From contig OX597835.1 of NCBI GenBank assembly GCA_951406725.2, positions 26,164,001 to 26,228,000 on the forward strand: a stretch of DNA of 64,000 nucleotides. The letters are read 5' to 3'. Within the stretch, counting starts at the first letter, position 1, and the number at the start of each line of letters is the position of its first letter. This DNA comes from Octopus vulgaris (lineage: Eukaryota). Under the pieces are notes generated by a model. It ran no database searches and had not been told where the DNA came from. It saw only the letters and a list, made by a program, of their open reading frames with translations. Positions 26,187 to 26,965 of this stretch are shown one piece after another. Both the position numbers and the translations under genes were made by a program.

Positions 26187-26231
<45 letters not shown>

Positions 26232-26399
26232 CATAAGGGACATTAGCCATTTGAATGTGGCTATGGACAGGGCAGGGTGGTGGGGGTGTTACTGATGCAT
26301 TTAGCCCCAGGCGATCATCAACGTCACCAGATAGGCTGACACCATCACGGTGTCCTCTATCCTGCAAAGGGAGATCATTCCCCAAAGAAGCGGATGCCA

Positions 26400-26444
26400 C
26401 ATACGGACCCAGGTTTCAAGGTATTTGCCTATCATCAACGTATG
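26400..26444 (-). ncRNA. Type I hammerhead ribozyme (mirror copy of 26660-26704)
   Basis: Reverse complement of 26660-26704. Confidence 0.72.
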
Positions 26445-26659
26445 GCAGGCACCGCTCCCCGACGAACAACTCTCCGTGGTCCCTAGCCACATTCAAATGG
26501 CTAATGTCCCTTATGTTATGGAGCAGTTATTGTCTATATCTCGTTTAGAGAATTATTATTGCTGTCGAACAGATTTTCGAAATCAGTAAATGTATTTACG
26601 TGAAAATCTATATATAAATATCCTGCACGGAGAGTTGTTCGTCGGGGAGCGGTGCCTGC

Positions 26660-26704
26660 CATACGTTGATGATAGGCAAATACCTTGAAACCTGGGTCCG
26701 TATG
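26660..26704 (+). ncRNA. Type I hammerhead ribozyme, U3-G8 core, GUC cleavage triplet
   Basis: catacg-TTGATGA-tagg(caaata)cctt-GAA-acc(tg)ggt-C-cgtatg. Confidence 0.72.
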
Positions 26705-26916
26705 TGGCATCCGCTTCTTTGGGGAATGATCTCCCTTTGCAGGATAGAGGACACCGTGATGGTGTCAGCCTATCTGGTGACGTTGATGATCGACTGGGGC
26801 TAAATGCATCAGTAACACCCCCACCGCCCTGCCCTGTCCCTAGCCACATTCAAATGGCTAATGTCCCTTATGTTATGGAGCAGTTACTGTCTATATCTCG
26901 TTTAGAGAATTATTAT

Positions 26917-26965
<49 letters not shown>

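Follow-up and report, generated by a model that had tools for sequence, protein, structure and literature searches.

The element at positions 26228-26918 of the window, i.e., of the whole stretch of 64,000 nucleotides that was analysed, is a real and young variant of the retrozyme-like elements. It is probably non-autonomous and copied by Penelope-like enzymes, from an RNA that is continuous across the cleavage site of its hammerhead motif. An indication for this is the pattern of an inverted copy plus a tail within a TA microsatellite, which points to a small parasite that is likely copied by Penelope-like enzymes.

The idea that Penelope-like elements mobilise animal retrozymes, as well as the class itself, has already been published (Cervera and de la Pena, 2020, PMC7229834; Li, Clavereau and Pollet, 2026 preprint, both as far as accessible), and the gain is therefore incremental. 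New are the U3 core of the hammerhead and the Penelope-type footprint on a hammerhead unit. In the accessible parts of Li 2026 and PMC7761336, the link between animal retrozymes and Penelope-like elements is argued from co-occurrence and from similarity to pseudo-LTRs (pLTRs), not from insertion structure. A young hammerhead monomer with an inverted arm, both start sites of reverse transcription and a more-than-unit copy gives direct structural support for Penelope-mediated movement. Moreover, the insertion points to the RNA region where a purified enzyme could be assayed. If the U3-G8 core is common to many samples, surveys based on the ribozyme consensus undercount such elements. The repeat landscape of the window is reminiscent of octopus genomes. 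A literature search combining octopus and hammerhead ribozyme showed no such family in the listed titles and abstracts, most subscription papers and several supplements lying outside this search. In the accessible text of a 2026 octopus repeat annotation (PMC13282606), the words ribozyme and retrozyme are not used.

Structure of the Insertion

The features of the locus are listed in Table 1. The element has (TA)n runs at both ends. An earlier note, based on the letters of the DNA, had described it as an inverted copy, a direct tail copy and a full unit inside (TA)n, and the near-identity of the copies confirms that this layout is real. The direct-repeat period is 357 nt, so that the copies at the locus amount to 1.23 units head-to-tail. 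At the junction of the inverted arm and the partial monomer (26478/26479), no bases are shared. The boundary of the tail falls within TA and is uncertain by 1-2 nt. The copies differ at 4 of the 334 aligned bases, a divergence which suggests that the insertion is young. Within the 64-kb window, no further copy of the element was found.

Table 1. Features of the insertion and of its monomer, in coordinates of the window
Feature	Position	Strand	Remark
Left (TA)n target run, ~38 nt	26190-26227	.	
Inverted copy of 26626-26876, 5′-truncated; begins at tail-less 3′ end	26228-26478	-	248/251 identical
Hammerhead motif in inverted copy	26391-26454	-	core start 26438; sequence same as sense copy
Partial upstream monomer, copy of 26836-26918	26479-26561	+	82/83 identical
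Full 357-nt monomer	26562-26918	+	repeat period 357; junctions bridged by contigs of other runs
AT-rich 64-nt monomer part with TATA-like run at ~26608-26620 (putative promoter only)	26562-26625	+	GC 0.281; covered in 4/4 runs
Type I hammerhead motif	26650-26713	+	predicted cut after C26698
Two hairpins named in the earlier note	26721-26775	+	fold alone
11-nt duplicate of hammerhead 5′ core sequence	26779-26789	+	non-ribozyme
42-nt tail, right arm only	26877-26918	+	X17 contig ends at tail-less position, then (TA)n
Right (TA)n target run	26919-26961	.	

The layout had also been recognised as the insertion geometry of Penelope-like elements, and this assignment is supported. As described in the accessible text of PMC8557442, Penelope-like insertions consist of an inverted, 5′-truncated copy and a partial tandem, carry a one-sided tail of 30-40 bp and are targeted to microsatellites; a similar insertion structure is described in PMC3846280. 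At the present locus, an inverted, 5′-truncated copy is located at the 5′ end and is followed by a partial tandem, the tail is one-sided and 42 nt long, and the AT-rich microsatellite target is represented by (TA)n on either side. The tail-less end is additionally found in another sequencing run, as one contig of X17 has its end exactly at 26519, which corresponds to 26876, and is followed by (TA)n.

According to the accessible part of the Li 2026 preprint (10.64898/2026.07.22.740005), an active retrozyme is characterized by two units. The present locus falls short of this, as it contains a single sense core (26666) and a single antisense core (26438). With one sense ribozyme, this copy alone could not release a circle.

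Length, Composition and Folding of the Monomer

The repeat had originally been taken as a unit of ~290 nt (26626-26918). The monomer is in fact 357 nt long and includes the preceding 64 nt as well, as contigs from two other studies extend across both junctions of this part. The 293-nt unit has a GC content of 0.498 and the 357-nt monomer one of 0.459, compared to 0.368 for the window, so that the unit is indeed richer in GC than its surroundings. The value of the monomer lies within the limit of <50% that the text of PMC7229834 gives for retrozymes and just above the 45% of a figure legend in that paper, in the parts that are accessible.

The description of the element as highly structured holds modestly for the 357-nt monomer and does not hold for the 293-nt unit. 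The latter folds with a z-score of -0.91, and 8 of 60 shuffles fold equally well. The z-score of the monomer is -2.23 as a linear molecule (1 of 100 shuffles as good) and -2.34 as a circle (0 of 60), with 68% of the bases paired. A transcript across the whole insertion is predicted to form a single hairpin of ~250 bp, in which both ribozymes would be buried. The two hairpins that the earlier note had named fold on their own, with -4.8 and -10.0 kcal/mol. The second cgttgatgat motif to which it had drawn attention belongs to a genuine 11-nt duplication, which 18 of 2000 shuffles match. Since the unit has no GAAA downstream of this motif, it does not constitute a ribozyme core. Reading this second UUGAUGA as another or a hybrid ribozyme was likewise ruled out, as the unit contains neither a GAAA nor a helix partner for it. 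ARAGORN detected 0 tRNA genes in the 64-kb window.

The Hammerhead Motif

Helix I of the motif comprises 6 bp (26660-26665 with 26699-26704) and is extended by an internal loop, UGC/U, and two distal helices. The core UUGAUGA is located at 26666-26672, with U3 at 26666, and is followed by GAAA and GUC. Helix II consists of a U-U at its base (26673/26686) and 3 bp, closed by the loop CAAAUA (26677-26682), and helix III consists of 2 bp with the loop CUGG. The GUC hammerhead, the U3-G8 core and the U-U at the base of stem II, all read from the letters before, are found in both copies at the locus. This does not count as independent evidence, as the copies probably originate from one insertion event. 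Among 20000 dinucleotide shuffles of the monomer, none yields such a motif, with criteria that were fixed after the motif had been seen.

The 6-bp helix I, the predicted contact between loop 1 and loop 2 and the short palindromic helix III agree with the canonical type I architecture of animal hammerheads, as defined in PMC4209133 (accessible text). The strict hammerhead consensus, on the other hand, is not reached. It reads C3-U4-G5-A6-N7-G8-A9, G12-A13-A14, A15.1-U16.1 and H17, with positions 10.1 and 11.1 paired (PMC3088659, accessible text), whereas the present motif has U3 and leaves U10.1-U11.1 unpaired. In the same text, the natural covariation that is reported is U3-A8, and a published filter is described that discards core changes and core-adjacent mispairs as likely cryptic mutants. 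A search of the element against Rfam, with E-values of up to 10 allowed, did not return a hammerhead, and no hammerhead is found among the 150 listed of 281 matches for the whole window.

Folding predictions place the active fold at -13.0 kcal/mol and the local minimum at -19.1 kcal/mol, which makes the active fold 6 kcal/mol less stable. In the circular monomer, the predicted pair probabilities are at most 0.01 for helices II and III and at least 0.90 for helix I. Helix III is near-palindromic, and an 8-bp pairing between two molecules is predicted, with -9.8 kcal/mol. Self-cleavage would probably be weak and aided by dimer pairing via helix III. A measured activity or rate for a U3-G8 core was not found in the literature that the search could reach, some key papers lying outside it.

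The Family in Other Sequencing Runs

Part of the monomer is found in 20 of the 24 listed runs (10 studies, 4 coded organisms), with at most 0.53 of its words, and the repeat family is probably multi-copy. Contigs of four of the 24 runs were aligned, i.e., X3 and X2, guessed to be DNA, and X10 and X17, guessed to be RNA; X1 was excluded as a possible source. The reference was 26479-26835, one permuted monomer that has the junction of tail and spacer inside. All 30 bins are covered in each of the four runs, by 811, 533, 11, and 37 contigs in X3, X2, X10, and X17, respectively. Summed contig depth was not equated with copy number. A joint that goes back 357 positions was rejected as evidence for circles, as it is the natural 26835/26836 link that results from the permuted reference.

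A junction was considered bridged by a contig with at least 31 letters on either side, and this rule was applied to the 30 listed contigs. The junction of tail and spacer (26561/26562) is bridged by two of them, X10 record 1 and X17 record 10, and the junction of spacer and unit (26625/26626) by X10 record 3 and again X17 record 10. The latter contig is 285 nt long and aligns with 8 differences and no gap. Among the listed contigs, none from a DNA run satisfies the 31-letter rule, and both bridging runs are RNA by guess only; no run is given as RNA in the list. Diverged contigs from both DNA runs, with a depth of 3321 and 3066, overlap 26561/26562 with short sides of 27 and 9 letters. The listed loose ends after 26597-26616 resemble, by eye, the next part of the unit and not new sequence. 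The share of ends that run on unlike the unit is 0 in both DNA runs and 0.59 and 0.23 in the other two. A full dimer or an array of two full units was not seen among the contigs. Exact-pattern scans were empty (0 matches) for viral contigs and, in two rounds, for metagenome contigs. Altogether, the probable multiple copies, the 64-nt middle part that is bridged at both ends, the second copy with a tail-less end before (TA)n and the failure to find an open reading frame (ORF) support the earlier proposal of a non-autonomous, retrozyme-like element.

Variants at 26666, 26673, and 26686 are not listed in any of the four runs, and matching of the tables indicates that U3 and the U-U are kept in X17 record 10 and X10 record 3. 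The 64-nt ribozyme contains two of the 28 listed variable sites, where 5.0 are expected (p ~0.10). These variants concern the free position 7 and a change in loop 3 that makes the palindrome perfect. Over 26599-26694, which comprises the TATA-like run and the ribozyme's 5′ half, the cover in the DNA runs is down by one to two orders of magnitude. This is probably caused by subfamily divergence, and the loose ends point to more diverged subfamilies. U3 is consequently established for this subfamily only, the ribozyme of the commoner subfamilies being outside view.

Coding Potential

The element had been said to show no credible protein similarity, and indeed no Pfam family was found in any of the seven element frames tested. 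Comparison of its six frames with the other frames of the window, including the Penelope-like ORFs, gave a best E-value of 0.44, i.e., no match. An autonomous Penelope-like element has an ORF for reverse transcriptase (RT) and GIY-YIG between its pLTRs, whereas the repeats at this locus are only 64 nt apart. An autonomous partner was not identified, and the element is unlike the Penelope-like ORFs of the window, a comparison weakened by the short query.

A 30-codon frame at 26497-26589 (+) runs through the tail into the spacer. Its ATG, equivalent to 26854 in the right arm, is located 65 nt before the end of the tail. By analogy, this frame could be the relic of a parent ORF start. In rotifer Penelope, pLTR and tail contain the first 22 codons of the ORF, and a TATA-like run is present upstream in the pLTR (PMC3846280, accessible text). 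Protein searches with the ATG-led peptide returned no homologue, which is a weak result for a query of 36-40 residues. A single match of the peptide (E 3.7e-4) to a 2503-residue tandem-repeat protein was rejected as an artefact of summed scores, as it contains no passing stretch and gives no BLASTP alignment. With its period of 357 nt, no Pfam family and no homologue for this peptide, the monomer corresponds to the 150-450 nt, non-coding units of retrozymes.

Proposed Mechanism and Alternative Explanations

Both arms of the insertion span the predicted cut site 26698/26699, and the template was therefore continuous there. As the longer cDNA additionally exceeds one monomer, this template was either circular or a multimer that had remained uncut. 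With a cut linear monomer, the cDNA would have ended after 220 nt. A route via circles is plausible and is tentatively proposed here. Tandem transcripts of the 357-nt repeat would slowly cut themselves at the predicted hammerhead site, would then be closed into circles, and these would be copied into TA microsatellites by a Penelope-like enzyme. A Penelope-type RT/endonuclease would have cut (TA)n on both strands, and reverse transcription would have started both at 26918 and, 42 nt away, at 26876. The two cDNAs, of 440 nt (1.23 monomers) from 26918 and 251 nt from 26876, would then have been joined head to head, with no shared bases. In vitro, a Penelope-like protein from Anolis cuts both strands of AT-rich DNA and uses two internal start sites on the RNA, the distance between which corresponds to the tail (PMC11167929, accessible text). 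The same work describes insertion in vitro without a need for ribozyme cleavage, uncut RNA being the main substrate of this protein.

The latter result favors another explanation, which is possible although somewhat less likely: that the template was an uncut linear transcript of a tandem source locus, copied by a Penelope-like helper, with a U3-G8 ribozyme that is weak or dead and with no circles needed. The ribozyme would then have been retained by descent, or because it serves as a signal for binding or folding. The geometry itself requires nothing more than continuity of the template across the cleavage site. In addition, U3 and the U-U depart from the consensus, the active fold is predicted to be disfavored, and eight of nine Xenopus retrozyme dimers remained uncleaved in vitro (Li 2026, accessible part). 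However, the residues of the tertiary contact, the GUC site and the palindromic helix III are all retained, and the few ribozyme variants are located at tolerated positions, a weak argument given the p-value above. Besides, both cleavage and circles are described for an axolotl retrozyme that has a U-U at helix II and a helix III of 2 bp (PMC7229834), and a halophile source is cited for a natural core in which U3 and G8 occur together, in this case with an insertion of 2 nt (PMC7151607; both in their accessible text). It is unlikely that the unit represents just the pLTR and the beginning of the ORF of an autonomous Penelope-like element, with the present copy as a truncated or internally deleted stump and a short form that does not spread by itself. 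The geometry is also that of ordinary truncated insertions (PMC8557442, PMC3846280), the 30-codon frame through the tail and the upstream TATA-like run resemble the rotifer pLTR, and a relationship of retrozymes to pLTRs has been reported (Li 2026), as far as these sources are accessible. Moreover, short contigs detect branches poorly, and the loose ends were judged from the listed ones. Nevertheless, the ribozyme region returns within 64 nt after the tail, in contigs of two other studies as well, and the loose ends listed after 26597-26616 go on, by eye, like the following part of the unit, the unlike share being 0 in both DNA runs. The ribozyme is also canonical, whereas those of autonomous animal pLTRs are minimal, with a long helix II and no loop contact (PMC4209133, PMC7761336, accessible text), and the peptide of 36-40 residues is without homologue, which weakly argues in the same direction.

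A local rearrangement at the DNA level, a satellite fragment or an assembly artefact that mimics retrotransposition is very improbable. Assemblies are known to have difficulties with inverted and tandem structures (PMC8557442, accessible text), a target-site duplication is unreadable inside (TA)n, and the locus is known from the assembly, not from spanning reads. The four differences between the copies argue against a collapsed duplicate, though, and the two 3′ ends fit the tail pattern that is also seen in X17, while the shuffles indicate that a ribozyme motif of this kind would hardly arise by chance. Within the preferred reading of a retrozyme-like element copied by Penelope-like enzymes, a more specific variant is conceivable but doubtful, namely a family in which a fixed U3-G8 wobble and the U-U attenuate the ribozyme, so that it cuts only as a dimer or when bound by the helper, and in which the circles persist. 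If true, any search in which C3 is a requirement would overlook such families. The insertions would then preserve a trace of Penelope-type priming at two sites and on two strands, with a circular template, a step so far only proposed for animal retrozymes.

Relation to Known Elements

Like the animal non-LTR retrozymes in the accessible parts of PMC7229834 and Li 2026, the element has a non-coding monomer of 150-450 nt with a GC content <50%, a canonical type I hammerhead, a more-than-unit insertion and co-occurrence with Penelope-like elements. Its 357 nt are comparable to the mussel repeats of 350-390 bp, and the U-U at helix II and the 2-bp helix III are shared with HHR_Amex2 of axolotl (PMC7229834, accessible text). 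It differs by its U3-G8 core, by its 1.23 units with one sense ribozyme, and by cleavage and circles that are only predicted here. The inverted arm and the tail are not described for animal retrozymes in these texts, and the word inverted occurs 0 times in that of PMC7229834. The element is not regarded as a proven retrozyme, since its core departs from the strict consensus, the locus has fewer than two units, and cleavage and circles are predicted only.

With the endonuclease-bearing Penelope-like elements and their pLTRs (PMC8557442, PMC3846280, PMC11167929, PMC4209133, accessible text), it shares the inverted, 5′-truncated copy, the partial tandem, the tail of ~40 nt, the AT-rich or microsatellite target, a hammerhead near the 3′ end and a TATA-like run. 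In contrast to these elements, no ORF for RT and GIY-YIG is present between the repeats, the ribozyme is canonical and an autonomous partner was not identified. The MRC1-type elements of Chlamys are also non-autonomous Penelope-type units with pLTRs and head-to-tail copies, but share their 3′ ends with known autonomous families and belong to a clade without canonical hammerheads (PMC8557442, accessible text).

The ribozyme itself resembles the type I hammerhead of Schistosoma mansoni (PMC2632901, accessible text) in loop 2, which is CAAAUA in both, and in the internal loop of helix I, with U on the 3′ strand and C beside the proximal helix. The Schistosoma residues involved in the tertiary contact (U, C, A) have counterparts here. 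The differences are U3 instead of C3, the U-U at the base of helix II and a smaller predicted internal loop.

Other Repeat Features of the Window

Fragments of Penelope-like RT and GIY-YIG genes are present in the same window and were counted in favor of the preferred reading. A 669-codon Penelope-like ORF at 55039-57045 (-) shows RT and GIY-YIG motifs by eye, with no Pfam match, and is similar to the ORF at 17937-19187 (BLASTP E 1e-7). An inverted, 5′-truncated copy of this element is located at 57020-59046 (2027 nt, 96%). A core scan found no hammerhead core here. The frame at 17937-19187 (-) is a fragment with Penelope-like RT and GIY-YIG, 65% alike to the fragment at 60407-61373. At 24859-25130 (+), a short frame without Pfam match carries WFTPPY, a motif of Penelope-like proteins.

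Two further hammerhead-like sequences were observed. The one at 25452-25530 (+) has a consensus CUGAUGA core at 25466, a long helix II and a palindromic helix III and ends in a CA microsatellite; it is probably the end of a different Penelope-like family. The other belongs to an inverted pair at 62700-63120, with the core at 62829 (-) and a changed core in the mirror copy. This pair shows the same inverted-end geometry and adjoins the RT fragments at ~60220-62056 (-). Lastly, a full-length match to U2 snRNA at 46985-47185 (-) scores 151 bits, above the Rfam threshold. It is located beside a short interspersed repeat and is either a gene or a retrocopy.
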